Below are positions 4,354 to 34,060 of a DNA stretch of 34,060 bases, piece after piece. Every line of letters starts with the position of its first letter. Within the stretch, counting starts at the first letter, position 1. The translations under genes were made by a program, and so were the position numbers. The notes under the pieces are model-generated. The model was given only the letters and a program-made list of their open reading frames with translations, was not told the DNA's origin and searched no databases. This DNA comes from an uncultured Methanosarcinales archaeon (GTDB lineage: Archaea; Nanobdellota; Nanobdellia; Woesearchaeales; CALCXY01). The stretch lies in contig CAYLOA010000012.1 in NCBI GenBank assembly GCA_964385185.1, positions 1 to 34,060 of the forward strand. The letters are read 5' to 3'.

Positions 4354-5055
4354 ATGATTTCACTATTTTTACCATTCTACAACGAAAAGGATATTGTAGA
4401 AGAAAATACAAAAAAAGTAAGGGATAAACTTAAACAAATGGACATCCCATTTGAGATTATTCTAGTAGATGATGGTTCAACAGACTCCTCAAGTAAAATA
4501 GCAGATGAAGTTGCAGAAAAATACACAGAAGTAACTACAATCCACTATGAAGGAACTCCAACTAGAAGAGAAAACCTAGCTAAATCATTTAAAGAAGCAA
4601 AGGGAGAAACCATAGTCTTTATGGATATTGATCTCTCAACGTCATTAGATCATCTGGAAGGATTAATTGAATCCATAAAAAAGAATGATATAGTAATCGG
4701 TTCAAGAAAAGTTCCTGGATCTCAAACAGATCGAGAATTATTCAGAAAAGCCTTAAGTTTTGGCTACACCAGTTTCGTAAAAACATTATTCAAATCAAAG
4801 ATTCACGATTTCCAATGTGGTTTCAAAGCATTTAGAAAAGATATCATTCTAAACCTCGTAGAAGAAGCGGGTTATGACTCTTCATTAAAGAGAGGCTGGG
4901 CATGGGATGTTGAAATACTCATCAGAGCTGAAAAGAAACATCTCAGAATAAAAGAACTCCCTGTCAAATGGACTTGTGGAACAAACTCTTCATTAAACAT
5001 CAAAAGAGAATTGAATGTTATTCCTTATTTTCTAGAATTAAAAAAGAGGTTGTAA
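4354..5055 (+). CDS. GT2 dolichyl-phosphate glucosyltransferase-like (Alg5/DPM1-like)
   Basis: SLFLPFYNE, VDDGSTD, MDIDLS, DFQCGFKAF, WAWDVEIL. TATA-like TTTAAAT at 4324-4330. Confidence 0.88.
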   Translation: MISLFLPFYNEKDIVEENTKKVRDKLKQMDIPFEIILVDDGSTDSSSKIADEVAEKYTEVTTIHYEGTPTRRENLAKSFKEAKGETIVFMDIDLSTSLDHLEGLIESIKKNDIVIGSRKVPGSQTDRELFRKALSFGYTSFVKTLFKSKIHDFQCGFKAFRKDIILNLVEEAGYDSSLKRGWAWDVEILIRAEKKHLRIKELPVKWTCGTNSSLNIKRELNVIPYFLELKKRL

Positions 5056-5067
5056 ACACTATGCACC

Positions 5068-5466
5068 TCATGGTTCCTGATACATTCTTTCAACCTTACA
5101 TCCTAAATCAGAAAATACAGTAGTTACTCTCGAAACTTCAGCTTTGCTTGTGAGAGCTAGAAAATGAATATCATATTGCTCTAGATATTCTCTAGCAACC
5201 CTTTTTAAAATATTAGCAGCGGCACCATGATTGGTACTCTGTTCTGAATTGCTTGAACCCTGTCCTACAACATGAGTAAGAAAATACTTAGTATTGGTAG
5301 GGGCAGTCCAAACATAGGACAGAAAATGTTCAACATTCTTCAAAAAAAATCCTTCTCCTCTCAGTGTTTTTTTTACAAGACCGATATTAGTATAATCAAA
5401 TCTTGATGAATCCCTTCCAAATCTATTCACATCATCTGGTGTAGCTACAATAACCTCTGGTGCCAT
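5068..5466 (-). CDS. Hypothetical protein (132 aa)
   Basis: Fills the gap between two clear genes, ATG start, AT-rich upstream region. No motif recognised. Confidence 0.6.
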   Translation of the reverse strand: MAPEVIVATPDDVNRFGRDSSRFDYTNIGLVKKTLRGEGFFLKNVEHFLSYVWTAPTNTKYFLTHVVGQGSSNSEQSTNHGAAANILKRVAREYLEQYDIHFLALTSKAEVSRVTTVFSDLGCKVERMYQEP

Positions 5467-5580
5467 ATATGCTATTATATTTTCTTAAGCTTAAAAATTT
5501 ATCGAAACATTATAGTGTAAAAAGTATAAAATTTGTATACCTCCCAAACACTTAAAAAGAATCAAACCCTCCATCTTAGA

Positions 5581-8488: not shown

Positions 8489-9367
8489 ATGAAAATCGTT
8501 GTTTCCATACCTGCATACAATGAAGAGAAATCACTACCGAAGGTAATCGAAGAAGCACAAAAAGTCATGAAAACCACAAAATATGACTTTATTATCCAAG
8601 TAGTGGATGACGGCTCTACAGACAAAACTGCTGAAGTAGCTAAAAAGGCAGGTGCCATTGTATATTCACATCCTGGAAACTACGGTTTAGCTGAATCCTT
8701 CCGAACTGAAATTCACCATGCATTAGCAAATAAGGCAGATATCATAATCCATACAGACGCAGATGGCCAATACCAAGCTACAGACATTCCAAAATTAATC
8801 AAAGGAATTGAACATGGATATGATTTAGTCCTAGGAAACAGATTCAAAGGAAAGATTGAATCCATGCCAATCACAAAAAGATTAGGTAATAAAGCATTCT
8901 CAAGAGCAATCTCCAGAATTATTGGAAGAAAAATAGGAGATGCACAAACAGGTTTTAGAGCATTCACAAAAGAAGTTGCAAAATTACCAATTATCTCTAA
9001 TCATACCTACACACAGGAGCAAATTATTAGAGCAGTAAGATCAAAATTCAAACTAGCAGAAGTAGGAGTTTATTTTGCAAAAAGAGATGGTAAAAGTAGA
9101 TTGATGAAAAATCCTTTAGAGTATGCTTTCAAAGCTTGGATAAACATTTTTAGAATCTACCGAGATTATGAACCATTAAAATTCTTCGGAAAGATTGGAT
9201 TATTCTTTTTCATACCAGCAGTAGCTGCAGGTGTTTGGCTGTTATGGCTCTTCTCAAAATTCGGAGTAATTGGAAAAACACCTACTATTATGTTAGTTGT
9301 TTTACTTATGGGTATTTCAGTCCAAATTTGGTTGTTTGGTTTCTTGGCAGATATGCAGAGGAAATAA
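8489..9367 (+). CDS. GT2 DPM1/AglJ-like glycosyltransferase with two C-terminal TM helices
   Basis: SIPAYNEE, VDDGSTD, TDADGQY, DAQTGFRAF and a C-terminal hydrophobic hairpin. Confidence 0.9.
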   Translation: MKIVVSIPAYNEEKSLPKVIEEAQKVMKTTKYDFIIQVVDDGSTDKTAEVAKKAGAIVYSHPGNYGLAESFRTEIHHALANKADIIIHTDADGQYQATDIPKLIKGIEHGYDLVLGNRFKGKIESMPITKRLGNKAFSRAISRIIGRKIGDAQTGFRAFTKEVAKLPIISNHTYTQEQIIRAVRSKFKLAEVGVYFAKRDGKSRLMKNPLEYAFKAWINIFRIYRDYEPLKFFGKIGLFFFIPAVAAGVWLLWLFSKFGVIGKTPTIMLVVLLMGISVQIWLFGFLADMQRK

Positions 9368-9371
9368 ACAA

Positions 9372-10475
9372 ATGAAAATTCTCGTACTCACCTCAAGATA
9401 TACAGCTTTAAGAGATATTATAGAAGAAGATTTCGGAAGACAGACAAGATTATTCGCAGCATTACAAAAATTAGACAATCAAATTGATTTTTTCTGTGTA
9501 GATTACAAAAAGAAAGAACATAAAGATACAAAACTACATGGAATGAATATCCATATTAAACCGTTCACGCCGTTCAATCCACTTTCTCATATCAAACTCT
9601 ACAAACAACTAAAAAAGCAATTAAAACAAAAATATGATTTAATTATTGCAACTTCAGATCCACTCTGGGGAGTATTTGCACACAAAACTGCTAAAGCAAC
9701 CAAAACTCCATTTCTCTACGATCTCCACGATAATTATGAAGTCTATCAAACATACAAGTTACCTTTTTTCAAATATCTTGATCATAAAATAATCAAAGAA
9801 GCTGATATGGTAACAACTGTCTCTCACACATTAAAAGATTATATAAAAAAATGGAGAAAAAATAATGTCTATGTCATCCAAAACGGTGTAGATATAGATT
9901 TATTCAAAGAAACTAGACAAGCTCCTGCAAGAACTGCACTCAAACTACCACAAACTCCAAAAATAATTGCATATGCAGGATCTCTGCAAAAACAACAAGG
10001 AATTCACATCTTAATTGAAGCATTCCAAGAATTACAAGAAGAATTTCCCGATCTACTATTATTCCTAGCAGGAAGAATAAAAAAGGTAAAAGGAGAGGAA
10101 CTACACATTCAACATAAAGGAATTATCTACAAAGATGACCTTAATCAAAAAGGTGTAGTCCAAGTAATCAATGCTGCAGACATTGTGGTCATTCCAAATA
10201 CGGACAATGCATTTACCAAATACTGCTTTCCCTATAAATGTGTGGAGTATATGGCTTGTAACACACCCATTGTAGCCACAAATGTAGGAGATGTAGGAAT
10301 ATTCCTAAAACAATTTCCCCATACCTTGTGTAAACCAGATGATGTTGAAGATTTAAAAGAAAAACTAAAATACAAACTCACCCATGAAGAAAAAATTGAT
10401 TATCGTAAACATATTAAGAAAAACACATGGGATGCTATTGCTGAAAAACTAAATACCATACTTAAACAACTTTAG
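9372..10475 (+). CDS. GT4 family glycosyltransferase
   Basis: Start moved to ATG 9372 (MKILVL). YDLHD, NGVD, YAGSL, FPYKCVEYMACNTPIVATNVG. Confidence 0.88.
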   Translation: MKILVLTSRYTALRDIIEEDFGRQTRLFAALQKLDNQIDFFCVDYKKKEHKDTKLHGMNIHIKPFTPFNPLSHIKLYKQLKKQLKQKYDLIIATSDPLWGVFAHKTAKATKTPFLYDLHDNYEVYQTYKLPFFKYLDHKIIKEADMVTTVSHTLKDYIKKWRKNNVYVIQNGVDIDLFKETRQAPARTALKLPQTPKIIAYAGSLQKQQGIHILIEAFQELQEEFPDLLLFLAGRIKKVKGEELHIQHKGIIYKDDLNQKGVVQVINAADIVVIPNTDNAFTKYCFPYKCVEYMACNTPIVATNVGDVGIFLKQFPHTLCKPDDVEDLKEKLKYKLTHEEKIDYRKHIKKNTWDAIAEKLNTILKQL

Positions 10476-15313: not shown

Positions 15314-16710
15314 TATTGCTTTATTCTCAATTTCTTCATCATAATCCAACCTTTTTTAGCAGGTTCCATTAAATGATTCTGAACAAAAGGTACTTTCCAA
15401 GTCTTAAATCCAATAGCACCAAGAGTTTTACCAAAATGTCTTTTCAAAAATAATTCCATAATCTTCTCTTGTCCTAATCGATACGCCTTAATCCTCTCCT
15501 CACGAGTAAATTCTTTAGTCTCAAAAACAGGTTCTTCTCCCCAATAATGTAAACTATTCAAAAACTCATCTGGAGAATGTAACAGGGTACCATGTTCTTT
15601 CACCCAAGTAAACATCTCAGTTCCAGGATAAGGAACCATATTATAAAACCGAACTTGATCAATCCCTAAAGTAGCTGCAAACTTAGTATCTTCAACGAAC
15701 ATCTCATACGTCTGTTCAGGATTACCAATAATAAAGTTAACTTGGCAATCTATCCCAATTTCCTTAGTTAGTTTAACAGCACTCTTCAACGTCTCTTTAG
15801 TCATGCCTTTCTTCAACAATTTCAGTGAATTAGTATTAGAAGTTTCCATACTATAAGCAATCCAAACAGTCCCTGCATCTTTCAACTTACGTAACAATTG
15901 CTCATTAACTCTATCAGCTCGCAATCCATTCCCAAAAATTAACTTAAGCTTCATATCACTTTCAATAATCAAGTCACAAATCTTCTCAGCTCGTTCCATA
16001 TTAAAAGTAAAATTATCATCACTAAACTCAAACGTGTTAAATCCCTTAGAATACCAATGTTTCAACTCATTCACAGTACTTTCAGGACTTCTCTCCCGAA
16101 AAGGTCTTTCAAACACCAATGCAATAGAACAAAAGGTACATCGATACGGACATCCTCGTGAAGAAACAATAGGAATCCGTTTCTCCATCATTTTATCAAG
16201 TTCAAAAAGATCATATTTAGGCAAAGGCAAACTATCTAAGTCTTTGTTAGTAGCCATAGGAGGATTGGTAACAATTTCATCCCCATTTCTCCAAATTAAC
16301 CCATTTATTTCCTTAGGATCAACTTTGTTACATAAATCAGTAAAAGGTTGCTCTCCTTCACCATATACAACATAATCTGCTTTACAATCTTTCAGAATTT
16401 TACCAAACACAACTGAAGTATAAGATCCTCCAGCTGCAATAGGAATATCAAACTCATCTTTAATTTGATTCACAATCTCATAGGACATCTTATATCCAAA
16501 ACTAGCCATACTCATCCCGATAAGATCAGGTTTGTAATCTCGAATCTTCTGCAGTAAATCTCCTGTATCAGGATACAATCTCATATCTTGCAGTCCAACG
16601 GAATGTCCTGCTTTCTCCAATACAGCAGCAAGTGTAGCAATACCTGCATGAGGAATAGTTGCTACTACATATCTTCCCAAATTCGGTGGTAAAATCAGTA
16701 ATATTTTCAT
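15310..16710 (-). CDS. Cobalamin-binding radical SAM protein (class B methyltransferase-like)
   Basis: N-terminal B12-binding Rossmann domain (GEGE), SRGCPYRCTFC (CxxxCxxC), DDNF, PYPGT. Confidence 0.9.
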   Translation of the reverse strand: MKILLILPPNLGRYVVATIPHAGIATLAAVLEKAGHSVGLQDMRLYPDTGDLLQKIRDYKPDLIGMSMASFGYKMSYEIVNQIKDEFDIPIAAGGSYTSVVFGKILKDCKADYVVYGEGEQPFTDLCNKVDPKEINGLIWRNGDEIVTNPPMATNKDLDSLPLPKYDLFELDKMMEKRIPIVSSRGCPYRCTFCSIALVFERPFRERSPESTVNELKHWYSKGFNTFEFSDDNFTFNMERAEKICDLIIESDMKLKLIFGNGLRADRVNEQLLRKLKDAGTVWIAYSMETSNTNSLKLLKKGMTKETLKSAVKLTKEIGIDCQVNFIIGNPEQTYEMFVEDTKFAATLGIDQVRFYNMVPYPGTEMFTWVKEHGTLLHSPDEFLNSLHYWGEEPVFETKEFTREERIKAYRLGQEKIMELFLKRHFGKTLGAIGFKTWKVPFVQNHLMEPAKKGWIMMKKLRIKQY

Positions 16711-16829
16711 AAATACACCATCTTTTTTCTATTCATATAGAAAAAATAAGAAATGATACAAGTTTTTAATGTTAACGATTGTAAAGAGGAAAGTTTATTA
16801 AGATAATTCAGTGTATTCTCATTGATAAA

Positions 16830-17492
16830 ATGTTTGTTACAGAATTGAGCATTGTGCACAAAGGATGTTGGGGTTCTGAAATTCATCAAAAATTTCCTCA
16901 ATATCACTTTTCTTCAGTAGATTGCAGATGGGTTCGGGGTGAAGTTGTTCATATTGTAAGGTCAAAAGGTAGTATGTTACCCAAAAAAAATATCATTACA
17001 TATCTTAAAAATAGAAAGGATGTTTCCAAAGTAGATGTATTAAGCCAGGATGAAGATGAACTACTCCTAAGAGTTTCCACAAAAAGATTAAAAGAAATTG
17101 GGCAATTTTCAGATATTTTTTTTCAAAATGATTGTTTCCCTATTGCTCCCACAAAATTCATTGACAATACTGGAAGTATTGAAAATAAAGAGCTACTGAG
17201 ACTCCAAGACTATAAAGATGCTGACAGTACGATTCACCCACAAATATCAGATATTCCCTTTATAGTTCTCAGAGGAGGATCAGGACAAATTAGCAATCTC
17301 AGAAAAGCTTGTATAGCTCAAGGAATAAAATTTACAGATTTCACTTCTACCATGATTGGAGAAACCTATATCGAACAACACGAAAAAACAAAATCAACTA
17401 AAGAAGAAGATCTGGAATATTTTGGAATATGTATTTTTGGTGAAAAAAACAACCTCTCAGAACTTACCAAAAAGTTTTCATTATGGAAATAA
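16830..17492 (+). CDS. Apparent chimera: N-terminal domain of a Bat/HTH_10-type archaeal regulator fused to the C-terminal part of a DUF2000-like protein, possibly a pseudogene
   Basis: HKGCWGS at the N-terminus with no following HTH. The C-terminus YKDADSTIHPQIS.PFIVLR...FTDFT.TM...TY...LEYFGICIFG...LTKKFSLW resembles DUF2000 lacking its N-terminus. Recognised by eye only. Confidence 0.55.
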   Translation: MFVTELSIVHKGCWGSEIHQKFPQYHFSSVDCRWVRGEVVHIVRSKGSMLPKKNIITYLKNRKDVSKVDVLSQDEDELLLRVSTKRLKEIGQFSDIFFQNDCFPIAPTKFIDNTGSIENKELLRLQDYKDADSTIHPQISDIPFIVLRGGSGQISNLRKACIAQGIKFTDFTSTMIGETYIEQHEKTKSTKEEDLEYFGICIFGEKNNLSELTKKFSLWK

Positions 17493-17498
17493 GACTAA

Positions 17499-18431
17499 TT
17501 AATTTTTCTGCTTAAAATAAGCAATAGTATCTTGTAATCCTTCAGCTAAATCAACTTTAGGTTCCCAATCTAACAACTCCTTAGCCTTAGAAATATCAGG
17601 ACATCGTTGTTTAGGATCATCTTGAGGCAGATCCTTATAGACAATCTTACTTTCACTCTTAGTAATTTTCAAAATAGTTTCTGCAAATTCTTTAATAGTC
17701 ATCTCACTAGGGTTACCAATATTTACAGGCTCCACTTCATCGCTCATCATTAATTTGTAAATCCCATCAATTAAATCAGAAACGAAACAAAAACTCCGAG
17801 TCTGACTTCCATCTCCAAAAATAGTGATATCTTCACCAGCTAATGCCTGACTAATAAAAGCCGGCACCACCCTACCATCTTTCTCTCTCATCTTAGGACC
17901 ATAGGTATTAAAGATTCGAACAATCCGAGTCTCAACTTGATGCACTCTATGATACGCCATTGTAATAGCTTCAGCAAATCTTTTTGCTTCATCATAACAT
18001 CCACGAATACCTATAGGATTCACATTCCCCCAATAATCTTCCTTTTGAGGATGCACTTCTGGATCTCCGTAACATTCTGAAGTAGAAGCCAATAAAAATC
18101 GAGCTTTCTTCTCCTTAGCCAATCCTAAAGCATTATGAGTACCTAAACTTCCCACTTTTAATGTTTGAATTGGAATTTCTTGATAATCGATAGGTGATGC
18201 AGGACTTGCAAAATGAAAAATATAATCTAACTCACCCTCAACTTCAATAAACTTAGTAACATCATGATTAATAAATTCAAAACTGGGATTATCTTTTAAT
18301 AATTCAATATTATCTTCATTACCAGTAACTAAATTATCCATACAGATAACATGAAAGCCATTATTCAACAAATGTTCACATAAATGACTCCCTAAAAAGC
18401 CTGCCCCTCCCGTAACTAAAACTCGTTTCAT
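17499..18431 (-). CDS. uxs: UDP-glucuronate decarboxylase (UDP-xylose synthase), extended SDR
   Basis: [64 protein letters not shown]. Confidence 0.92.
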
Positions 18432-21379: not shown

Positions 21380-22242
21380 AAAGAATCCATCTTCATAAAA
21401 TTTTCAGGTATCGCTTCCTTAACTTTTTCTCGAGGAATTTCTATACTCATAACATATCCATCAAGAAGGAACGGCTCATCATATCCTGGGAAATTCTTTT
21501 GATTAAATGTAAAATCTTCATCTTTGGTACTACAAATATATCCTCCTAATCCTCTTAATAAAGCATCGGCTGGTGCCGCATCCCAATCTTTACTATTTGG
21601 GATATTACTTGCACACACATGTATTCTTCCATTAAGTAAAGCGTCAACAGTACTCCCACTAGCTCCAGTAGGTACAATTTCGACTTCCAGGCCTAAACTT
21701 TCTCCTAGTGTATAATAGAAATCCTTCAATGTGTTATTTTCTTCATACCATTTCATACCACATAACAACTTTTCTAATTTTTGCTCTGGAATGGGTGTAA
21801 TTATTCCTTGATCTTCAAAAATAACATCTTTCCCATCAGAGTACCACATTCTATCTGCACCAGGCACATAAACAATACTTGCAACAGATGCATATGTCCC
21901 ATTAGGTTGTCTTTGTAATAATGCAACCATAGTGGCGTATCCTTCTTTTTTACCTTTACTAAAATCATATGTTCCATCAACAGTATCTAATTGCCAAAGT
22001 AAATCATAATCAAATCTAGTGGGATTAAGATGTTCTTCTGAATAAGATCCTGGAAACTGACGCTGAATAATATCAAGAATACTTTTACTAGATTCTATAT
22101 CAGCAGCAGTAACTAAATTGGGATACTTATAGTTTCCTTTTGTCACAGCCTCTACATTGCCAAATCTTGGAAGAATCTCATTAGCTGCAGCCCACCTAAT
22201 CAGCTTAACCATCTTCCTTACTTCACGAGTAAATGTTACCAT
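21376..22242 (-). CDS. Inositol monophosphatase / CysQ-like (FIG superfamily) phosphatase
   Basis: LVTAAD, SEE, WQLDTVDGT (a DPxDGT variant), KDWDAAP...GG. Confidence 0.8.
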   Translation of the reverse strand: MVTFTREVRKMVKLIRWAAANEILPRFGNVEAVTKGNYKYPNLVTAADIESSKSILDIIQRQFPGSYSEEHLNPTRFDYDLLWQLDTVDGTYDFSKGKKEGYATMVALLQRQPNGTYASVASIVYVPGADRMWYSDGKDVIFEDQGIITPIPEQKLEKLLCGMKWYEENNTLKDFYYTLGESLGLEVEIVPTGASGSTVDALLNGRIHVCASNIPNSKDWDAAPADALLRGLGGYICSTKDEDFTFNQKNFPGYDEPFLLDGYVMSIEIPREKVKEAIPENFMKMDSF

Positions 22243-22304
22243 AAAAATAGAAATTCAGTATCCTTTTTTAAGATATTGTTTAAATTAGGTATCAAAACAA
22301 AACC

Positions 22305-22312
22305 TTTATAAA
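22305..22312 (+). promoter_or_regulatory. TATA box for the 5S rRNA gene
   Basis: TTTATAAA with an A-rich BRE-like run upstream, ending 22 nt before the 5S 5' end. Confidence 0.7.
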
Positions 22313-22333
22313 TCACCCCAAACACCTATTATA

Positions 22334-22445
22334 TGGACGGCCATAGCTGTTTGGTTCACCTGTTCCCATTCGAACACAGAAGTTAAGCAAGCATACGTTC
22401 TGATGTGTACTGTACTTAAGTACGGGAAATTTGGAAAGCTGTCCA
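22334..22445 (+). rRNA. rrf: 5S ribosomal RNA (stand-alone, about 112 nt)
   Basis: Helix I TGGACGGC pairs with GCTGTCCA. GGCCATA, the loop C region ACCTGTTCCCATTCGAACACAGAAGTTAAG, and archaeal-type loop E GTACT...GGGAAA are all present. Confidence 0.93.
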
Positions 22446-22447
22446 CC

Positions 22448-22458
22448 TTATTTTTCTT
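22448..22458 (+). terminator. T-rich archaeal-type terminator after 5S rRNA
   Basis: TTATTTTTCTT directly after helix I. Confidence 0.5.
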
Positions 22459-22504
22459 AAATAATTTCAGAAAATCTTTTATACTTATAACATATAAATC
22501 TTGT

Positions 22505-23068
22505 ATGCGTGATACTACTCCAATTCTAGAAGCTTTAGAACAGATTGGTGAAGATACCGAAATATATCAAGATGAATTTTCAAAACATACACCAAAAGAT
22601 TTTCCAAATAATACTTTTCTTAAAGGAATAGTAGCAATATATGATAGTAGTACAGTGCCTAAAAACAGATTTTTAAAAGGTCGAGGTATTTCAATACATT
22701 ATAGTATTTCTAGGATGTATGGTCTTAATATTACATTGATTCAAGGAAACACAAATTTTAATGAACGAAGAATTTGGAGTGCAAATCCTGGATTAGCTGA
22801 CCTAGGAACAAGAATTGCAATGCGAACTGAGGGTCTTGAATTCTATAATGGTACTTTTTTGCAAACAAGATTACACAGTAATGAGGCAACTGCTGAAGGC
22901 ATCAGAAATGTTAGTAGGGCTCAAAATCAAGTGTACCAAGTTGTACAATATCTTGAACATAAACATGTAAACGATGCAGTAATGGCAACATTAGGAGACA
23001 GCAGTCTTTGCTATCCGCTAAAAGATACACAATTTCCTACAGCTCAATCAAAACATTCTTCTCCTTAG
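22505..23068 (+). CDS. Hypothetical protein (187 aa)
   Basis: The track start at 22403 lies inside the 5S gene. The next ATG, 22505 (MRDTTPIL), has TTTTATAC about 21 nt upstream. The 3' end overlaps the NFACT gene by 32 nt. Confidence 0.6.
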   Translation: MRDTTPILEALEQIGEDTEIYQDEFSKHTPKDFPNNTFLKGIVAIYDSSTVPKNRFLKGRGISIHYSISRMYGLNITLIQGNTNFNERRIWSANPGLADLGTRIAMRTEGLEFYNGTFLQTRLHSNEATAEGIRNVSRAQNQVYQVVQYLEHKHVNDAVMATLGDSSLCYPLKDTQFPTAQSKHSSP

Positions 23069-25020: not shown

Positions 25021-25482
25021 TTAGAAAAACAAACTATACACATCTTCATCTTCTTTATCATAATAATGATTCTTTAAAGATGTTTCAAGCTTAAACCCTA
25101 ATTTCTCATAAAACTTTTTAGCTCGATCATTGGAATGGTGAGTTAACAAATACAACTTACGCAAAGAAAAACCTTTCTTAACATAGAATGCTTTAATTTC
25201 TTTAACCAATCCGTCAAATAACTTCTGAGCTATCCCTTTCCCTCGAGCACTTCCCAAAACTGCAATCCTATTCAACTCTGCTAACTCATGTTTAGGCAAA
25301 TCATGAACTGTCCAAGAAGCAAAACCTAATATCTCACCATCCTCAACAACAACATAACGATGTTCTTTTCCAATTTCAGAAACAAACACTTTCTCACCCT
25401 CAGCAACGGTATCCATATTATAACTTTCAACCATTACTTTGGCAATCCCTTTTGCATCCGTAACTTTTGCTTTTCGTATCAT
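25021..25482 (-). CDS. GNAT family N-acetyltransferase
   Basis: IRKA, ILGFAS, RIAV..ARGKGIA (acetyl-CoA motif A), N..AKKFYEKLGF. ATGA overlap with the glmS stop. Confidence 0.92.
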   Translation of the reverse strand: MIRKAKVTDAKGIAKVMVESYNMDTVAEGEKVFVSEIGKEHRYVVVEDGEILGFASWTVHDLPKHELAELNRIAVLGSARGKGIAQKLFDGLVKEIKAFYVKKGFSLRKLYLLTHHSNDRAKKFYEKLGFKLETSLKNHYYDKEDEDVYSLFF

Positions 25483-27281
25483 TCCACAGTCACCACCTTA
25501 GCTAAATTCCTAGGTTTATCAATATCACAACCCCGTTGCAAAGCAATTACATAAGCAAACACTTGTAAAACAACAACTGAAACAATCGGACTTACATAAT
25601 CACTCATTTTGGGAACATAAATCACATCATCAGCAACCTTCAAAATCCCTTTATCCCCTTCAGTCGCAATAGCAATGATCTTTCCACCTCTAGACTTTAC
25701 TTCTTGCATATTATTTAAAACTTTATCATACAAATCATCTTTCAAAGCTAAAAACACAGAGGGCATATCCTTATCAATAAGAGCTATAGGTCCATGTTTC
25801 AACTCAGCCGCTGATTGACCTTCTGCATGAATATAACTAATCTCCTTCAACTTCAAAGCACCTTCTAAAGCAATAGGATATAAATATCCTCTACCCAAAA
25901 ATAACACATTATTATGAGTACTGTACTTAGAAGCAACTTTTACAATGGAATCATATCCCTTCAACACCTCTTTAACATTCCCACCTAATGAAGCTACCTC
26001 TTGCATCTCCATTACACCTTTCTCTCGGTTATATCCTTCCTTATGCTTGGCATAATACATACAAAACATAAGAAGTGTCTGAACCTGAGCAGTAAAAGCC
26101 TTAGTACTTGCCACCCCAACTTCTTGCCCAGCTTGTGTAGTTAAAGTAAAATTACTCTCACGAACAAGAGTTGAATGAGCAACATTACAAATACTCAGCA
26201 CAAAAGCCCCTTTTGCCCTTGCCTTATCAACAGCAGCCAAAGTATCAGCAGTCTCGCCAGATTGAGAGATAGCAATAACCAATGTTTTATCATCAACAAT
26301 CGCATCTCTATATCTAAACTCAGAAGCATACTGGACATCTGCTGGAAACTTCAAGAACTTCTCAAAATAATAACTTCCCACCAATCCAGCGTAATAAGCA
26401 GTCCCACAAGCAATAATAACAATTCTATGCAAAGGCTTCATCCGTAACTTCTTAAGCTCCTGACCAACATGGTCAAAAGTCTTCTTTAAAGTATCAGGCT
26501 GTTCATAAATCTCTTTAAGCATATAGTGTGGAAACTTCCCTAGCTCTGCCCGTACGATTTTTCTATAGATTGTTTGAATCTGAAATTTCTTTTTCTTCCG
26601 GGAATTAATATCAAAAAGGTGAATTTCGTCACCCACTTCTGCTAGTTCACCATCATGCATAACAACAGCTTCATTTGTATAATCCAAAAATGTTTGAAGA
26701 TCAGAACTTATAAATTTTTTCTGATCCCCCAAACCAAGAGTCAAAGGACTGCCGTTTCTGACACCGATTAGACTGTTAGATTTAGAGTCCATGACAACTA
26801 ATGCATACCTACCTGTCAGTTTTGGTAAAATATTTAAAATTGCATCCCTAAGTGAAGATCTTTTTTTGACCTCATCCTCAATCATATGAGCCAAAACTTC
26901 AGAATCAGTTTCAGATGTGAAAGTGTGACCATTTTTGTGAAGTTTTTCTTTTAACTCTTGAAAATTTTCAATGATCCCATTATGAACCAGAGCAATATTG
27001 CCCTTACAATCGGTATGTGGATGAGAATTTTCTTTTGTAACACCTCCACAAGTTGCCCACCTAGTATGACCAATACCAAGACTTCCAGATATACTTGAAA
27101 GCCTCAATTTCTTATTTACTATGTCAATTCTTCCAACCTCTTTTTTAACAATAATGCCCTTTTGGTTTTGAATTGCTATTCCTGCCGAATCATATCCTCG
27201 ATATTCTAATTTCTTTAGATTGTCAACGATAATCTTACTTACGTCATTCTCGGAAGAAATAACCCCTATTATTCCACACAT
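25479..27281 (-). CDS. glmS: Glutamine--fructose-6-phosphate aminotransferase (isomerizing)
   Basis: MCGIIG, EYRGYDSAG, GHTRWAT, HNGIIEN, TDSEV, ACGT, SQSGETADT, STKAF, LKLKE, ELKHGP, PRNLAKVVTVE. Confidence 0.97.
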   Translation of the reverse strand: MCGIIGVISSENDVSKIIVDNLKKLEYRGYDSAGIAIQNQKGIIVKKEVGRIDIVNKKLRLSSISGSLGIGHTRWATCGGVTKENSHPHTDCKGNIALVHNGIIENFQELKEKLHKNGHTFTSETDSEVLAHMIEDEVKKRSSLRDAILNILPKLTGRYALVVMDSKSNSLIGVRNGSPLTLGLGDQKKFISSDLQTFLDYTNEAVVMHDGELAEVGDEIHLFDINSRKKKKFQIQTIYRKIVRAELGKFPHYMLKEIYEQPDTLKKTFDHVGQELKKLRMKPLHRIVIIACGTAYYAGLVGSYYFEKFLKFPADVQYASEFRYRDAIVDDKTLVIAISQSGETADTLAAVDKARAKGAFVLSICNVAHSTLVRESNFTLTTQAGQEVGVASTKAFTAQVQTLLMFCMYYAKHKEGYNREKGVMEMQEVASLGGNVKEVLKGYDSIVKVASKYSTHNNVLFLGRGYLYPIALEGALKLKEISYIHAEGQSAAELKHGPIALIDKDMPSVFLALKDDLYDKVLNNMQEVKSRGGKIIAIATEGDKGILKVADDVIYVPKMSDYVSPIVSVVVLQVFAYVIALQRGCDIDKPRNLAKVVTVE

Positions 27282-28282
27282 GGGAAACCCCCAGAATATT
27301 TAGCAACAAGAATTCTTAACTTATCCTTCTTGACAGGATGCTTGAAACCTATAAGTTCTGCAAATTTGAGAATATTCTCTTTCTTGGTTATAGAGAAATA
27401 AAACATTTTAGTTCTATTTCTCGGATGGTGTATTAGAATTTGATTTGGACGAATACCAATCGATTGAACCAATTTATGAATATCTTGAAGAAGTTCTTTG
27501 CTTTTTTGAGAAATTACAATCATACTTTTCTGAGGGTAAAGGAATCCTTCGTCATCATAAAGTCCCTGTAACAAATATTTTGCAAGGTGAAGATTGTTCT
27601 TGTCAAAAACAAATGGAGGAATTCTCTTATTAAATTTATTTTTATCGTATTCCAGAAGTTCAAAGAAAAAGTGACCAAGAGTAGTTGGTAACCAAACTTC
27701 TTTTACATTGGTTGGTTTTCTTCTTTGATATATTTTGAAATCCCCAAATAATTTCTTAATATCGATGACAAATTGGTTAATTAAAGTATGAGATTGGTTA
27801 GCGTAGAATGGTCTATATTTTCCTTCGGGTACATTAGTATGAATTCCTCCATCACCCAAGAAATTACCGATAACCCTAAATAAGGACGGTGAAATCAGAT
27901 CCTTAAGATTGAATTCTACAGGAAATGAAGTTTTTGTTTTTATTGAACAAATATTTTTTAATACGGTCGACCTTTGGATTCCATGGTTATTTCCCAAATT
28001 TATCAGTGTGTTAATATTTATGAAGTAATTTTCAATTTTAAGAATTCTACGAACAGTATTGCTGGACGAATTAATTTGCCTGGCTGTAGAAGAATAATTA
28101 GAAATTCTATTATTTAACAATTCTCGAAATAAAGGTGTTATCTGACAATAATAATTCTCGAAATTGATAAATTTTGTGATATTCATAATCTCTTTTGGAA
28201 TATCGCCAAAATTTTGAGATTTCAGAGGAATTATTTTGTCCTGATTTTCACCTGTAGTGAGAGATTTAATCATTTCTTTCAT
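27269..28282 (-). mobile_element. Free-standing double-motif LAGLIDADG homing endonuclease gene with an N-terminal HTH-like region
   Basis: Motif 1 FRVIGNFLGDGG and motif 2 YLLQGLYDDEG, plus intein-endonuclease-style RIPPFVF and KFAELIGFKHP. No Hint domain. Base composition differs from the upstream operon gene. Confidence 0.88.
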
Positions 28283-30000
28283 TACACATCCCTCAATATG
28301 CCAACCAACTCCTTATGATTACCACCTACAAAATCAGCTCCTTCACCTTCACCATAAAGAACAGTCTTCCCACCCATCTTTCCTGCCATCTTCAAATCCT
28401 TCTCAAAATTGTCACCAACAAAAACACATTCATAGGGACTCACCCCTAAAGCCTGCATAGCCAATTTAATATATTCCTCGTTTGGCTTCATAACACCAAT
28501 AGAATCACTACTCAATACCAAATTAAAATATCCTTCCAACTTCAATCTCTTAATCTTGGGTATCAACACATCGCTAGGGTCTTCACTCACTAAAGCAACC
28601 TTATAACCTTCCAATCCCTCCAATAATTCGGGAACTCCAGAAAATACCTGTAATCTATTCAATAACACCTTCAAAAAAGCACCAAATGCACCTTCAACAT
28701 CCTTCAACCGATGTCGTTTTGCCAACAATCCATAGCTATACTTTCTATGTCTTTTTTTAGGGTCTGTATCTTCCTTCACCTGTTCAACAATCTCTTTCCA
28801 TCCAGCATAGAGATGTGCTTCTCTTCCACCTTGTTTAGCAAAAAACTTCATGGCAGCCTTATCTGCAAGAGGACTCACCACCTTAGTATCATAAAGTGTA
28901 TTATCAGCATCAAAAACAACAGCCCGGACTAAATGATCTTCCTCTAAAGTCTTAACAGTCTTTCCAGGATAGACCATCTTACCAGGCTTACAAATCACAT
29001 CTTTACCAATCGTAACACCATCTCCTAAAAACACACCAACACTACAGTCAGCTTTCTCATAATGATCTTTAACAAAAACCTCTGCCTTGCCACTCTTAAC
29101 AACAAATCCATCACCAACTACACAATTCTTACCAATCACAGAATCTATAATCTTACAATTATTACCAACAACAGCCCCTTCCATAATAACAGAGCCATCA
29201 ATAACACTATTATCGCCAACATTTCCAGCTACTCCAGAAAAATTCTTCAAAACTGTTTTTTTACCAATCTTCCCTCCAACCCAACCTTTTTTATCAGCAA
29301 ATTTCTCCACCAATAATCGATTAACAAGCAAAACATCCCAAGGTTTACCTAAATCCTCTCGTTTTCCGTCATAGACCCAATACGGCAACTTCCCACCCTC
29401 CCTTAAAACATACTCTGGAGGAGGGACTTCTTTTTTACCAGAAAACAAAATATCCTTCTCTATTCCAGCCAAAAACTTTTGAGTATTCAAAATCCCAGCC
29501 CCAACCAACCCTAATTTACTAGGAGCTTTCTCAGGTTTTTCCATAATCTCTACAACGACATCCTTTTCCAATCGAGCAATCCCATATCTTTTAGGGTCTT
29601 TCACCTTACGAAGTGTAATGACTCCGTCACCTTTGTTCTTCTTTAATAATGTCCCAACTAAGTCATCAGAATGGACACTATCTCCATACTTAAAAAGAAA
29701 ATGGCTATCAGTGAGTAAATCTCTAGCAGAATAGATCGCATGGCTAGGCCCTAATTGAACATCTTGCACGACATACCCTATTTTAGTCTTGCCATACTCT
29801 TTTCCACAACGCTCAGAAATCTCCCCAACATTATCTCGATTACAGATAATAACAATATCATCTATACCATGTTTAACAAACTCATCAATATGATAAAAGA
29901 GCAATGGTTTTCCCAAAAATTCTAGCATAACCTTACTCCCAGTCAAACTAAAAGGCTTAATCCTACTACCACTCCCAGCAGCAAGTAATACTCCAATCAT
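28282..30000 (-). CDS. GlmU-like sugar-phosphate nucleotidyltransferase with hexapeptide (LbH) domain fused to a C-terminal HAD hydrolase
   Basis: LLAAGSGSRIKP, YGD, MEKP, DLGKPWD, then hexapeptide repeats (VIMEGAVVGNNCKIIDSVIGKNCVVG), then HAD motifs VFDADNTL, VS, KP, VGDNFEKD. Confidence 0.88.
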   Translation of the reverse strand: MIGVLLAAGSGSRIKPFSLTGSKVMLEFLGKPLLFYHIDEFVKHGIDDIVIICNRDNVGEISERCGKEYGKTKIGYVVQDVQLGPSHAIYSARDLLTDSHFLFKYGDSVHSDDLVGTLLKKNKGDGVITLRKVKDPKRYGIARLEKDVVVEIMEKPEKAPSKLGLVGAGILNTQKFLAGIEKDILFSGKKEVPPPEYVLREGGKLPYWVYDGKREDLGKPWDVLLVNRLLVEKFADKKGWVGGKIGKKTVLKNFSGVAGNVGDNSVIDGSVIMEGAVVGNNCKIIDSVIGKNCVVGDGFVVKSGKAEVFVKDHYEKADCSVGVFLGDGVTIGKDVICKPGKMVYPGKTVKTLEEDHLVRAVVFDADNTLYDTKVVSPLADKAAMKFFAKQGGREAHLYAGWKEIVEQVKEDTDPKKRHRKYSYGLLAKRHRLKDVEGAFGAFLKVLLNRLQVFSGVPELLEGLEGYKVALVSEDPSDVLIPKIKRLKLEGYFNLVLSSDSIGVMKPNEEYIKLAMQALGVSPYECVFVGDNFEKDLKMAGKMGGKTVLYGEGEGADFVGGNHKELVGILRDV

Positions 30001-30980
30001 TTGACCAACTCCATAAGGATTTTTGCCACTTTTTCAGAATCATGTCTAATCAAATGAGGAAAAGCAACAATATCCTTTCCACTAACTCGTTCCAACTGCA
30101 ATAACTGACTCTTATCAAGATCTGCAACAAAGTTATCCACAATAACCAGCCCCTCATCAACAGAATCTATCTTTACAGGAATGGCACCGTCTCGTTTATA
30201 CAAAGCCAGTAACTCATCACTAGGCTTTCCACTATTCACCAAAACATAATCAAACACAAAATCTCCATACTTCTTAACTTCCTCAACATGCATACCAGCA
30301 GTAAAATGATCAGTCTGGCCTGGATGGGTCATCACATTGGTCACAAACACTTTTTTTGCCTTACTCTTGGCAATCGCCAAGCCAACTCCCTCAACCAAAA
30401 GTATAGGAATAATCCCTGTCCGTAAACTACCAGGACAAACAACAATCATATCAGCTTCCTGTAATGCCTTAACAACACCTGTAGCTGCCTTAACAGCATC
30501 TTTCAAATATAATCTCAAAACTTTGCTTTTGCTCTGCTTAATAATCTCCCATTCCCCTTCAATCTTAGAACCATCTAACAACTCTGCACAGATCTGTGTG
30601 CTTTCATTACTTACTGGCAAGACTTTTCCACGAACACATACTAAATTACTCATGGTCTTCAAAGCCTCTCCAAAATCGCCCTCAATCCTAGTAAGAGCAG
30701 CCAGCATTAGATTACCCAAAGCAACACCTGATAGATTCCCCTCTGTAAAACGATACTTCAATAGCTTCTGCAAAACTCCATCCTTTGCCAAAGTACTCAA
30801 AACACTCCTAGAATCACCTACTTGGGGGATGTCCATTGCCTGTCTAATCAATCCTGAATAGCCACCATTGTCTGTAACACCAACAATAGCCGTAATATCA
30901 ACGTCTAACTGCTGTAATCCTTCCAGAATAGCCGCCTGACCAGTCCCTCCTCCTAAACATACTATCTTTGGTCGTACCAT
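29997..30980 (-). CDS. yvcK: YvcK/GlmR (UPF0052, CofD-like) family protein
   Basis: IVCLGGGTG, VTDNGGYSG, GD.R, LGNLMLAAL, GE, PGSL.TGIIP.L, NVMT.PGQTD, IRHD. Confidence 0.9.
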   Translation of the reverse strand: MVRPKIVCLGGGTGQAAILEGLQQLDVDITAIVGVTDNGGYSGLIRQAMDIPQVGDSRSVLSTLAKDGVLQKLLKYRFTEGNLSGVALGNLMLAALTRIEGDFGEALKTMSNLVCVRGKVLPVSNESTQICAELLDGSKIEGEWEIIKQSKSKVLRLYLKDAVKAATGVVKALQEADMIVVCPGSLRTGIIPILLVEGVGLAIAKSKAKKVFVTNVMTHPGQTDHFTAGMHVEEVKKYGDFVFDYVLVNSGKPSDELLALYKRDGAIPVKIDSVDEGLVIVDNFVADLDKSQLLQLERVSGKDIVAFPHLIRHDSEKVAKILMELVK

Positions 30981-31976: not shown

Positions 31977-34049
31977 ATGTTTGATACAAAAAAAATACAT
32001 AGGACCCTTGAAAAAATTCAAAAAGATATTGAAAATCATGAATTAGATAATTATGGGCTTCCCTGGTGGGATGACAAAAGAGTAGAAGATGTTGATGCCT
32101 TAGTTAAGGATCTCATAGAACTCAGAGATGTACACGGTTTTACTTCTCAGGGCATGAATGAATGGTTAGTATTGTTAGAGTATGCTCAAGCTGCCTACCA
32201 TAAAGGTATAAACCGTGAAAAAGCGGAAACAGAACTGAAGAAAAGAGATCCAAAAGAAATTAAAAGATTAAATTATTTCTTGAAGAAATTAGTTAACGAC
32301 ATTAAAATCTTTGAAACAGAAGGCACAGGAATGCTAATCCTTGAAAACCATAATTTCCCCATTGAAAAATACCCTGAAGCTGCTCAGTTTATGGCACATC
32401 ATCCAGGAGATTTAAAGAAGATGAATCAGGCAGCTGGTGATAATGCTGGGAAATTGTTCCAGTATGGTTTGCCAAAAGTTGTTGGAGCTGGTTTGGTGAC
32501 TGAAAAATATTGGCCTGGTTTAATTAAGATGGCTCAGGCAGCTGGTGATAATGCTGGGAAATTGTTCCAGTATGGTTTGCCNNNNNNNNNNNNNNNNNNN
32601 NNNNNNNNNNNNNNNNNNNNNNNNNNNNNNNNNNNNNNNNNNNNNNNNNNNNNNNNNNNNNNNNNNNNNNNNNNNNNNNNNTATGGTTTGCCAAAAGTTG
32701 TTGGAGCTGGTTTGGTGACTGAAAAATATTGGCCTGAAATTGTGAAGGGTTTAATTGAGATGGCTCAGGCAGCTGGTGATAATGCTGGGAAATTGTTCCA
32801 GTATGGTTTGCCAAAAGTTGTTGGAGCTGGTTTGGTGACTGAAAAATATTGGCCTGAAATTGTGAAGGGTTTAATTGAGATGGCTCAGGCAGCTGGTGAT
32901 AATGCTGGGAAATTGTTCCAGTATGGTTTGCCAAAAGTTGTTGGAGCTGGTTTGGTGACTGAAAAATATTGGCCTGGTTTAATTAAGATGGCTCAGGCAG
33001 CTGGTGATAATACTGATAGTTTGTACTGGTTTGGTTTGCCAATGGTTGTTGAAGCTGGTTTGGTGACTGAGGAAAATTGGGATAAACTAGTAAAATTAGT
33101 TAAGATATTGAGTAAGAACCTAGATAAAAAAAACATACAGAATCTGTTCCATAAAACACTCTCTCAATTTATACTCTTTCATAAAGTTGTTGATGTAAAC
33201 ACAATTGGGGATTTTACAGTAGCGGTAGTCAATAAATATGGCAAAGGACATCAACAAATAAGTAAAATTTTTAAGGAATTAGTTCCATTGGTAGAATCTA
33301 ATGAAGATTTGGAACTTTTATGGTCCTATTTGAAAATATCCTCCGTGATTTCGTTTAATTTATTTAAAGAATATAAAAATCTGGATGAAAAAAATAGAAA
33401 AGCATTTTTAGAAGACCATAAAAAAAGATATAGTGATATTGTCTTAGGAAAAGATACTAAATTTACTGTGAAGAATTTTCCGTATATTTTACACGCTATC
33501 AATTCCCCTAGTTTATCTGATCAAAAACTTAAACAAACACTAGAAACCTACGGTAAAAAAGCATCCGAATTACCTCCTACTACATTTACTTCTTTTAATT
33601 TAAAATCTATCAAGGATGTAGGAGGATTAAAAGTAAAAGGAAAATTAGATGAAAAACTATTTACTTATTATCGTGAATTTATCCAACTAATAAATAACTC
33701 TAAGCCAATAGAAATAAATTATAATGAATTGCTTGCTGAAAAAGTAAAATATAGTGAATCAATTTTAGGTACAGAATTTTCATTTGAAATAGCATGGCGA
33801 GTGAAAATGCTTGAAGTATTTTCTAACCTAGGAGAAGCAATGAAAAATAAATTAATAAAAATTACAAATGAAGACTTTAAATCATTTTCAAATGACTTAT
33901 TTGAATTGAGGGATGTATATAATGCATTTCTGGAATTGTATAATGATATCCTGCAGATAGAAGCCAATCTGATCTATTTAAAGCAAAAGCTTTTACGCTG
34001 TAAAGAACTTCATCTAAGCCCAATTCCTTACTTAAAGCTATATCTTTGA
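31977..34049 (+). CDS. Large hypothetical protein with internal 36/40-aa tandem repeats (spans a 100-N gap, so true length is unknown)
   Basis: Open frame on both sides of the gap. Repeat unit MAQAAGDNAGKLFQYGLPKVVGAGLVTEKYWP(EIVK)GLI(K/E). Confidence 0.7.
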   Translation: MFDTKKIHRTLEKIQKDIENHELDNYGLPWWDDKRVEDVDALVKDLIELRDVHGFTSQGMNEWLVLLEYAQAAYHKGINREKAETELKKRDPKEIKRLNYFLKKLVNDIKIFETEGTGMLILENHNFPIEKYPEAAQFMAHHPGDLKKMNQAAGDNAGKLFQYGLPKVVGAGLVTEKYWPGLIKMAQAAGDNAGKLFQYGLXXXXXXXXXXXXXXXXXXXXXXXXXXXXXXXXXXYGLPKVVGAGLVTEKYWPEIVKGLIEMAQAAGDNAGKLFQYGLPKVVGAGLVTEKYWPEIVKGLIEMAQAAGDNAGKLFQYGLPKVVGAGLVTEKYWPGLIKMAQAAGDNTDSLYWFGLPMVVEAGLVTEENWDKLVKLVKILSKNLDKKNIQNLFHKTLSQFILFHKVVDVNTIGDFTVAVVNKYGKGHQQISKIFKELVPLVESNEDLELLWSYLKISSVISFNLFKEYKNLDEKNRKAFLEDHKKRYSDIVLGKDTKFTVKNFPYILHAINSPSLSDQKLKQTLETYGKKASELPPTTFTSFNLKSIKDVGGLKVKGKLDEKLFTYYREFIQLINNSKPIEINYNELLAEKVKYSESILGTEFSFEIAWRVKMLEVFSNLGEAMKNKLIKITNEDFKSFSNDLFELRDVYNAFLELYNDILQIEANLIYLKQKLLRCKELHLSPIPYLKLYL
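32421..33084 (+). repeat. Coding tandem repeat with 108-nt and 120-nt unit variants
   Basis: Units start at 32421 (108 nt), 32529 (interrupted by the gap), 32760 (120 nt), 32880 (108 nt) and 32988 (degenerate). DNA is near-identical between units. Confidence 0.95.
32582..32681. other. Assembly gap (100 N placeholder) inside the repeat
   Basis: Exactly 100 N. Unit starts 32529 and 32760 are 231 nt apart, which is not a sum of 108 and 120, so the gap size is nominal. Confidence 0.95.
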
Positions 34050-34060
34050 ATGCTAAAACT

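Follow-up and report, generated by a model that had tools for sequence, protein, structure and literature searches.

The stretch analysed here (the window) is an entire 34-kb archaeal contig (CAYLOA010000012.1, 34,060 nt) from a genome of 1.3 Mb with 34% G+C, and its subject is a free-standing gene for a LAGLIDADG endonuclease with a predicted helix-turn-helix (HTH) part that lies directly upstream of glmS. The open reading frame (ORF) of 337 aa (27269-28282, minus strand), identified by ORF prediction, Pfam, AlphaFold, Foldseek and comparison with homologues, sits between two genes and overlaps both. Upstream is a gene for a 572-aa fusion of NTP-transferase, hexapeptide and HAD domains (GlmU-like; 28282-30000, minus strand; Pfam), a resident gene that forms the left flank of the insertion; downstream is a full-length glmS (600 aa; 25479-27281, minus strand; Pfam GATase_6/7 and two SIS domains), followed by a GNAT gene (25021-25482, minus strand; ORF prediction and Pfam). 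The ATG of the endonuclease gene overlaps the stop codon of the 572-aa gene as TAATG at 28282, and the last 13 nt of the endonuclease ORF (27269-27281) overlap the start of glmS at 27281, which has an ATG of its own. A first-pass annotation of this DNA had described the endonuclease gene as wedged into the operon with no intergenic DNA, and both overlaps are confirmed here.

Pfam recognizes only LAGLIDADG_3 in the endonuclease ORF (residues 237-312, E = 5.4e-12); no intein or Hint/Intein_splicing family was found in it by Pfam, and the ORF closes with a stop codon. In the AlphaFold model (predicted local distance difference test score, pLDDT, 88; predicted template modelling score, pTM, 0.84), a helical HTH part at the N-terminus precedes a double LAGLIDADG core. 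The first 32 residues (28187-28282, minus strand) form a leader predicted to be disordered (pLDDT below 50 for residues 1-29), the ATG of which occupies, judging from the TAATG junction, the position of the ancestral glmS ATG; in relatives of this gene, the leader position is taken by an in-frame leftover of the glmS 5′ end. Residues 33-110 (27953-28186, minus strand) make up the predicted HTH DNA-binding part, as suggested by the helices of the model and a weak profile match to 8dtq (E = 0.4); one homologue contains Pfam HTH_3, and two are named XRE-family HTH regulators by their sources. The first LAGLIDADG motif, LGDGG (residues 142-146; 27845-27859, minus strand), includes the predicted catalytic residue D144, with G143, D144, G145 and G146 invariant in 22 of 22 sequences. 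The second, YDDEG (residues 242-246; 27545-27559, minus strand), includes the predicted catalytic E245, with D243, D244 and G246 invariant and either D or E at position 245 in all 22. Two LAGLIDADG helices in a single chain, a double fold of the alpha-beta-beta-alpha-beta-beta-alpha type and an acid closing each motif are the hallmarks of monomeric LAGLIDADG enzymes.

The best Foldseek matches of the model are the intein endonuclease domains TliVMA, PI-PfuI and PI-PkoII (7qsu, 1dq3 and 2cw7) and I-DmoI, with a template modelling score of about 0.7 on the target and a probability of 1.00 to I-DmoI, PI-PfuI and TliVMA; the best sequence match in PDB is PI-PkoII (E = 1.2e-5). The solved structures of these four enzymes show the same monomeric double-LAGLIDADG fold with an acid ending each motif, but the window protein is only 18-22% identical to them and has an extra N-terminal HTH domain, and whereas they reside in an rRNA intron or in inteins, the window protein is free-standing. 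These features support the assignment of the ORF as a free-standing LAGLIDADG gene with intact predicted catalytic residues, neither an intein nor an intron ORF, in agreement with the first-pass observation that both motifs keep an acidic residue and that a Hint domain is lacking.

In the same-genus genome G001, the site is empty: the stop of the GlmU/HAD gene overlaps the start of glmS as TAATG, the GNAT gene comes next, and there is no endonuclease gene. In the window, the same TAATG enters the endonuclease ORF, so that its start codon sits at the former start of glmS. The comparison supports the view that the endonuclease gene is an insertion relative to G001, the GlmS of which is 60% identical to that of the window. 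The GlmU-like/HAD fusion itself is also present in G001 (54% identity) and in G020.

Of the 60 sampled relatives, 29, G001 among them, provided 29 glmS loci for comparison, and the endonuclease gene was found at none of these loci. These relatives were sampled as one genome per family, and 40 of the 61 genomes searched (with the window genome, G000, included) gave a glmS match; the endonuclease-linked set comes from a global search. That search yielded 21 full-length homologues in public data, with 44-58% identity to the window endonuclease, and DNA was retrieved for 12 genome loci and 11 metagenome loci, which came to 20 distinct loci after the removal of three metagenome duplicates (L058, L063 and L065). 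At all 12 genome loci and all 11 metagenome loci, a full-length glmS that has a start of its own comes immediately after the endonuclease gene (two of the contigs end within glmS). Related loci come from metagenome-assembled genomes named as Woesearchaeota, Nanoarchaeota and Nanoarchaeia. L053 (N-terminus not alignable), L054 (C-terminal piece only) and L060 (contig ends early) were likewise dropped from the glmS comparisons, and L066, represented by the N-terminal part only, was used in the site count and not in the tree of the C-terminal half of GlmS (C-half tree).

Counting the window, 19 distinct loci can be assessed, and at 14 of them a 5′ fragment of glmS, beginning with Met-Cys-Gly-Ile, forms the start of the endonuclease frame, so that the end of the host gene is duplicated; of the 22 database endonuclease proteins, 11 start with the GlmS N-terminus. 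Leftover length ranges from 19 to about 85 residues. All long leftovers terminate at RWA, where native GlmS goes on with THG, and L061 retains an uninterrupted copy of the glmS 5′ end up to RWA; the shorter ones stop after RGYDS or have internal deletions, and the Ala at the junction is kept in all leftovers. The leftover has been lost in the window, L018, L021, L022 and L057, and the window retains only the old ATG. Together, the leftovers and the linked glmS genes give the layout of the family: the endonuclease continues the frame of the old glmS 5′ end, and a complete glmS follows its stop codon. This arrangement supports the notion that the family specializes in the 5′ end of glmS.

The insertion junction of the family falls between glmS codons 76 and 77. 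From the ends of the leftovers and the site counts, we infer that codons 72-79 (27045-27068, minus strand), which read HTRWATCG in the window and HTRWATHG in the canonical form, are both the target and the immunity site. Across the 47 glmS genes in which these codons were aligned, canonical RWATHG is present in none of the 20 endonuclease-linked genes vs 19 of the 27 unlinked ones (Fisher's exact test, 3.8e-7). The linked genes carry RWSTHG, RWGTHG, RWATTG, RWATCG (the window) or RWATNG. Among 11 independent carrier/non-carrier pairs on the GlmS C-half tree, about 7.6 differ in the expected direction and none in the opposite one (sign test, median p = 0.0078). The common variants involve two substitutions within one codon (GCN to AGY; CAY to ACN or TGY), and the one-step intermediate codons GGC and AAT are also present at the site. 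Such a pattern would be expected if the enzyme cuts the canonical sequence near codon 76/77 and every carrier needs a resistant copy. The cut target can thereby be placed, provisionally, in the 5′ part of glmS at RWA/THG, the part of the gene in which it had been predicted to lie.

On the GlmS C-half tree, the distribution of the endonuclease gene takes 11 changes to explain, each of them on a well-supported branch. The endonuclease tree comprises two clades that cut across host clades; the endonuclease data reject the host clade L017+L014+L025+L061 (approximately unbiased, AU, test, 4e-6) and major host clade I (1.6e-4), with a third AU test of host grouping at 0.09, and the C-terminal half of GlmS rejects endonuclease-type groupings (3e-8). 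In five of five close pairs, synonymous divergence of the endonuclease gene is below that of the adjacent glmS. The distribution of the gene is sporadic, and it appears to have spread horizontally relative to the host gene. The empty site in G001, the patchy distribution and the rejected host clades all agree with the earlier proposal of a free-standing LAGLIDADG gene inserted into the operon.

Among public metagenomes of marine, seawater and hydrothermal-vent origin, 20 runs belonging to 17 studies contain the exact stretch 25400-28700, so that the carrier strain is widespread. Contigs from four public runs show 0-2 differences per listed contig piece relative to this stretch; they span both junctions with no differences, and the empty-site joint was not seen in them. 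Because contigs drop rare variants, this is no evidence either way.

These observations bear on the possibility that the gene is an old resident that is now immobile. A single ancient insertion with a tandem duplication of the glmS 5′ end would then have been passed on by vertical descent, with repeated losses through recombination between the 5′ copies, the enzyme, active or not, would not be homing at present, and the compositional block described below would have another cause. The members of the family are as divergent as their hosts (40-58% identity for the endonucleases and 35-51% for GlmS), the direct repeats would make precise loss easier, the left arm is missing from the window copy, and the matching carrier contigs of the four runs, being contigs only, fit this history weakly. 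The same history would require at least 11 losses among 46 rows, conflicts with the rejection of host clades by the endonuclease data and with the lower synonymous divergence of the endonuclease gene, and leaves the absence of the canonical motif in carriers unexplained. We regard it as unlikely.

Selection on the protein was assessed from the two least saturated pairs, in which the ratio of nonsynonymous to synonymous substitution rates (dN/dS) is 0.13-0.15; by this measure, the endonuclease is under strong purifying selection and its function appears to be kept. Such selection would also befit a domesticated, WhiA-like HTH-LAGLIDADG regulator of glmS or the operon that no longer cuts DNA. 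The gene invariably shares the orientation of glmS and is often translationally coupled to it, the protein has an HTH domain, an XRE-family regulator name appears in the source annotation of a homologue, and there is a wider family of HTH-LAGLIDADG proteins, 300-440 aa in length, that have a C-terminal winged helix. A regulator of this kind is hard to reconcile with the invariance of both catalytic acids in 22 of 22 sequences, the absence of the gene at 29 of 29 glmS loci of the sampled relatives, even within the genus, and an endonuclease tree incongruent with the host tree, and it gives neither the leftovers nor the site variants a role. Vertical conservation as a WhiA-like regulator, which had been named beforehand as the outcome that would overturn the homing interpretation, is not borne out, and we consider it very improbable.

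The stretch of glmS around the junction is also the site of an intein. Such inteins abound in public data, in hundreds of GlmS proteins: 835 long GlmS sequences were retrieved, and of the 120 best most contain Intein_splicing and LAGLIDADG_3, some together with HTH_3 (XRE-type). In all six sequences read (P0025, P0036, P0040, P0060, P0067 and P0132, from the protein set P0025-P0143), the intein is placed between GH and (S/C)RWATHG, four codons (12 nt) upstream of the free-standing junction. Two different selfish elements thus use the same conserved stretch of glmS, a homing target of a known kind, which is in line with homing of the window endonuclease. The 'GF-6P' intein of M. jannaschii in InBase is presumably a GlmS intein as well. 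The GlmS intein has the same HTH and double-LAGLIDADG layout as the window endonuclease, but it preserves GlmS by protein splicing, whereas the window gene is without a splicing domain and uses a spare 5′ end. Six intein-free glmS genes (L016, L018, L029, L031, L035 and L036) have Cys or Ser instead of Thr at codon 73, after GH; this is the residue type that follows the GlmS intein, and may be the footprint of past intein loss.

Given this proximity, the window gene could be read as a degenerate intein, that is, a former GlmS intein that has lost its splicing domain. Intein endonuclease domains are its best matches both in sequence and in structure, hhalign pairs the family profile over 251 columns with the HTH and LAGLIDADG module of a GlmS intein (probability 99.4, E = 4.6e-21), and the two insertion points are only four codons apart. 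Still, the ORF has no Hint or splicing family and ends in a stop codon, after which glmS restarts with its own complete 5′ end, and the junction lies after RWA, not after GH. Furthermore, a profile search of 1.84 billion representatives returned 2108 proteins at E <= 1e-3, and among the best 150 of these 2108 there are no GlmS inteins; free-standing HTH-LAGLIDADG proteins of 300-440 aa are closer. The GlmS intein was accordingly discarded as the nearest relative, and, with other free-standing proteins closer, common descent from the GlmS-intein module is not supported. As a description of the present gene the degenerate intein fails, and its probability is in our estimate minimal.

Distant free-standing relatives were also detected in the sampled genomes, one between the genes for ribosomal proteins P0 and P1 in G001 (L005:1333-2424) and one between aminoacyl-tRNA synthetase and topoisomerase genes in G059 (L003:1282-2379). 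Both are 363-365 aa long, with 25-27% identity, and consist of an HTH part, a LAGLIDADG core and a winged-helix tail. The window genome contains, in addition, a weak LAGLIDADG match (G000:C4:23214-23546, L002; 28% identity, E = 7e-5) within an open frame of 1278 aa, which is probably an intein in a large protein.

We consider it probable that the window ORF is a glmS-specific free-standing homing endonuclease, of a family belonging to DPANN (Woesearchaeota/Nanoarchaeia-like) archaea, which repairs its target by carrying along a new, resistant glmS 5′ end. In the proposed mechanism, the enzyme would cut endonuclease-free glmS alleles in the DNA for the glutaminase active-site motif HTRWA/THG, and the break would be repaired from a carrier allele in which the old glmS 5′ end and, after it, the endonuclease gene precede a complete glmS whose site is altered. 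Codons 1-76 of the recipient would pair with the leftover of the donor, the endonuclease gene and a fresh glmS 5′ end with a resistant site would be copied in, and the right end of the break would be resolved somewhere downstream within glmS. The outcome would be an intact glmS with a new start codon, so that the spare 5′ end, in place of RNA or protein splicing, would save the function of the gene. The endonuclease, fused in frame to the displaced old 5′ end, would obtain from it a start codon and presumably a promoter. In the window, the leftover would have been whittled down to the ATG alone, still overlapping the upstream stop codon as at the empty site, the resistant site would be RWATCG, and the imported tract may extend to glmS codon 177-254. 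If this mechanism holds, it would explain why, in half of the database entries, gene callers have joined a short glmS 'pseudo-start' to the endonuclease.

The window sequence is a compositional mosaic. On the plus strand of the whole contig, C exceeds G, with a GC skew of about -0.3 nearly throughout, whatever the gene strand. Around the insertion, the plus-strand skew over all bases is -0.40 to -0.68 over 28150-30000, -0.01 to +0.11 over 27250-28299, and -0.14 to -0.17 over 26500-27099; at 26950-27399 it is -0.28 to -0.32, that is, the raw skew is partly back at the extreme 5′ end of glmS. Third-position G:C counts on the coding strand are 139:36 in the GlmU/HAD gene and 88:23 in the CofD-like gene next to it (29997-30980, minus strand; ORF prediction and Pfam), 42:45 in the endonuclease gene, 40:26 in glmS codons 1-250 and 87:14 in glmS codons 251-600. 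The split inside glmS (Fisher p = 3.4e-4) is the most extreme among 40 glmS genes, and the window glmS ranks first among the 428 ORFs of at least 300 aa in its own genome for internal G:C heterogeneity.

A two-boundary change-point analysis on 581 G/C third positions delineates a block of weak third-position skew (26520-28282, minus strand) as a candidate imported tract that covers the endonuclease gene and glmS codons 1 to 177-254. The block starts at endonuclease codon 4-8 (28271/28259) and ends at glmS codon 177-254 (26751-26520, support interval), a boundary at glmS codon 1 or 78 is worse by 7.2 log-likelihood units (lnL), and none of 100 permutations reached the observed score. The collapse of the skew over the endonuclease gene and the 5′ half of glmS, described in the first-pass annotation, is therefore reproduced at third positions, and the linker motif PHYMLKEIYEQP, near which the skew had been said to return, maps where it had been placed, at GlmS residues 251-262 (26496-26531).

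In the trees, the signal for a foreign 5′ end is confined to a shorter part of glmS. G001 is the best match of the window GlmS only from about codon 200 on; over codons 1-33 it ranks 41st of 46 in similarity, and over codons 34-71 it ranks 25th. In the tree of codons 1-110, the window groups with L059 and L066, the loci whose endonucleases are the nearest relatives of the window's (support 88/78; the L066 endonuclease is outside the endonuclease tree, and it is its partial sequence that is most similar). A one-residue insertion near codon 12 is shared by the window, L056, L057, L059, L066 and L024, but not by G001. It is likely that a 5′ end reaching through the site (about codons 1-85) was replaced, either in the window or in G001. 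Judged by composition only, a foreign tract may extend out to glmS codon 250 in the window. A distant donor for the whole glmS 5′ half was discarded, given that the window stays with G001 in the tree of codons 1-250 and in that of codons 1-254.

Several results weigh against replacement by homing, or soften the evidence for it. Forcing the window and G001 together on codons 1-110 costs 9.7 lnL and the native position is not rejected (AU p = 0.19), nor is the host-tree grouping in a second AU test on these codons (p = 0.17), and the protein tree of codons 1-254 pairs the window with endonuclease-free G001 (88/95). A regression of segment identities over all pairs gave no significant deficit (z = -1.6, 0.08 and -0.8). 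The first 85 codons are discordant in many pairs, including pairs in which both members are endonuclease-free, with the window-G001 pair 9th of 88, and the relation of this 5′ discordance to site state is a trend only (Mann-Whitney p = 0.074). Maximum chi-square breaks come out as 'significant' with endonuclease-free third sequences as well (codons 83, 91, 191 and 245), and, with so many discordant pairs, the maximum chi-square test does not single out the window. At the target, 8 of the 27 unlinked glmS genes, that of G001 among them, also lack the canonical motif, so that site variants are not exclusive to carriers, and the linked and unlinked genes compared there were sampled differently (global search vs one genome per family); the endonuclease-free genes with variant sites could be former carriers or resistant alleles. 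With its left homology arm lost, the window copy may no longer home. All the support for homing is comparative.

The proposal of a 1.76-kb conversion tract with a foreign glutaminase half accordingly finds support in composition and is weakened by the tree of codons 1-254, and that of a mosaic glmS draws partial support from the move of codons 1-110 to the endonuclease-linked alleles and is tempered by the AU tests and the common discordance of the first 85 codons. In kind, the first-pass interpretation (a free-standing homing endonuclease, a target in the 5′ part of glmS and a 5′ end transferred along with it) agrees with the reading preferred here; the extent of the tract is not proven. Lysine codons, suggested as a further check, gave a muddied answer: the resident GNAT gene also favours AAA over AAG (14:6), and because it shares this preference the ratio is not a clean marker of foreign DNA.

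Phages and organelles are familiar hosts of free-standing homing endonucleases; in archaeal chromosomes, to our knowledge, such enzymes are barely described. The Seg and Mob enzymes of phage T4 are reportedly free-standing homing endonucleases that spread by intronless homing. F-CphI of cyanophage S-PM2 is reported to be another free-standing homing endonuclease with intronless homing (PMC6083498). The phage enzymes resemble the window gene in that they are encoded by ORFs of their own at conserved genes, with no intron or intein and with the target in a neighbouring gene, and their spread together with flanking resistant sequence is akin to the process proposed here. Unlike the phage systems, the window gene belongs to the LAGLIDADG family, resides in an archaeal chromosome and is inserted within the coding frame of its target; unlike them, too, its family has the glmS 5′ end duplicated and keeps the displaced end as an in-frame leader of the endonuclease.

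The closest analogue described so far is found in the mitochondria of fungi. Elements that duplicate the end of a host gene are reportedly associated there with Allomyces atp6 and Ophiostoma rps3. For the mitochondria of Tremella fuciformis, one study describes 'introns with N-terminal duplication' linked to homing endonuclease genes (PMC7315562), and partial foreign replacement of the host gene is proposed for fungal mitochondrial elements in that study and in a review (PMC8393795). The fungal elements are like the glmS family in carrying a part of the host gene, such that a functional gene and a displaced fragment remain (PMC7315562), but they differ in residing in organelle genomes, mostly as annotated introns, and in various genes. 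The glmS family, in contrast, is a single dedicated family at one prokaryotic chromosomal gene, with a junction in the active-site motif and matching altered sites. No paper on this system was listed in literature searches that covered LAGLIDADG enzymes in connection with glmS, free-standing LAGLIDADG enzymes of archaea, and LAGLIDADG in DPANN or Woesearchaeota, and LAGLIDADG is not mentioned in the 12 best-ranked of 630 papers on DPANN or Woesearchaeota.

The family may represent a third way, beside introns and inteins, for a homing endonuclease to reside inside an essential prokaryotic gene: it would supply a spare, resistant 5′ end with its own start, while the displaced 5′ end would act as a leader for translation and, when homing next takes place, as the left homology arm. 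In that case the intein and the free-standing enzyme would share the glutaminase motif as a battleground, and the pressure of both would drive changes of the motif and shuffle glmS 5′ ends among DPANN archaea. For this broader proposition, we put the chances at about even. If the mechanism holds, a selfish nuclease could occupy the coding region of an essential gene without any splicing machinery, and the system would be a natural example of the pressure of selfish elements on an enzyme active-site motif. The compact HTH-LAGLIDADG scaffold with its predictable target would also be useful for specificity studies.

Elsewhere in the window, the skew falls to about zero at four more spots (4500-5500, 8500-10000, 16500-17500 and 22000-23000), which may be further foreign inserts. 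Beyond 32 kb (32000-34060), the skew flips to +0.32/+0.35, which could reflect a replication origin or terminus, or an inversion.

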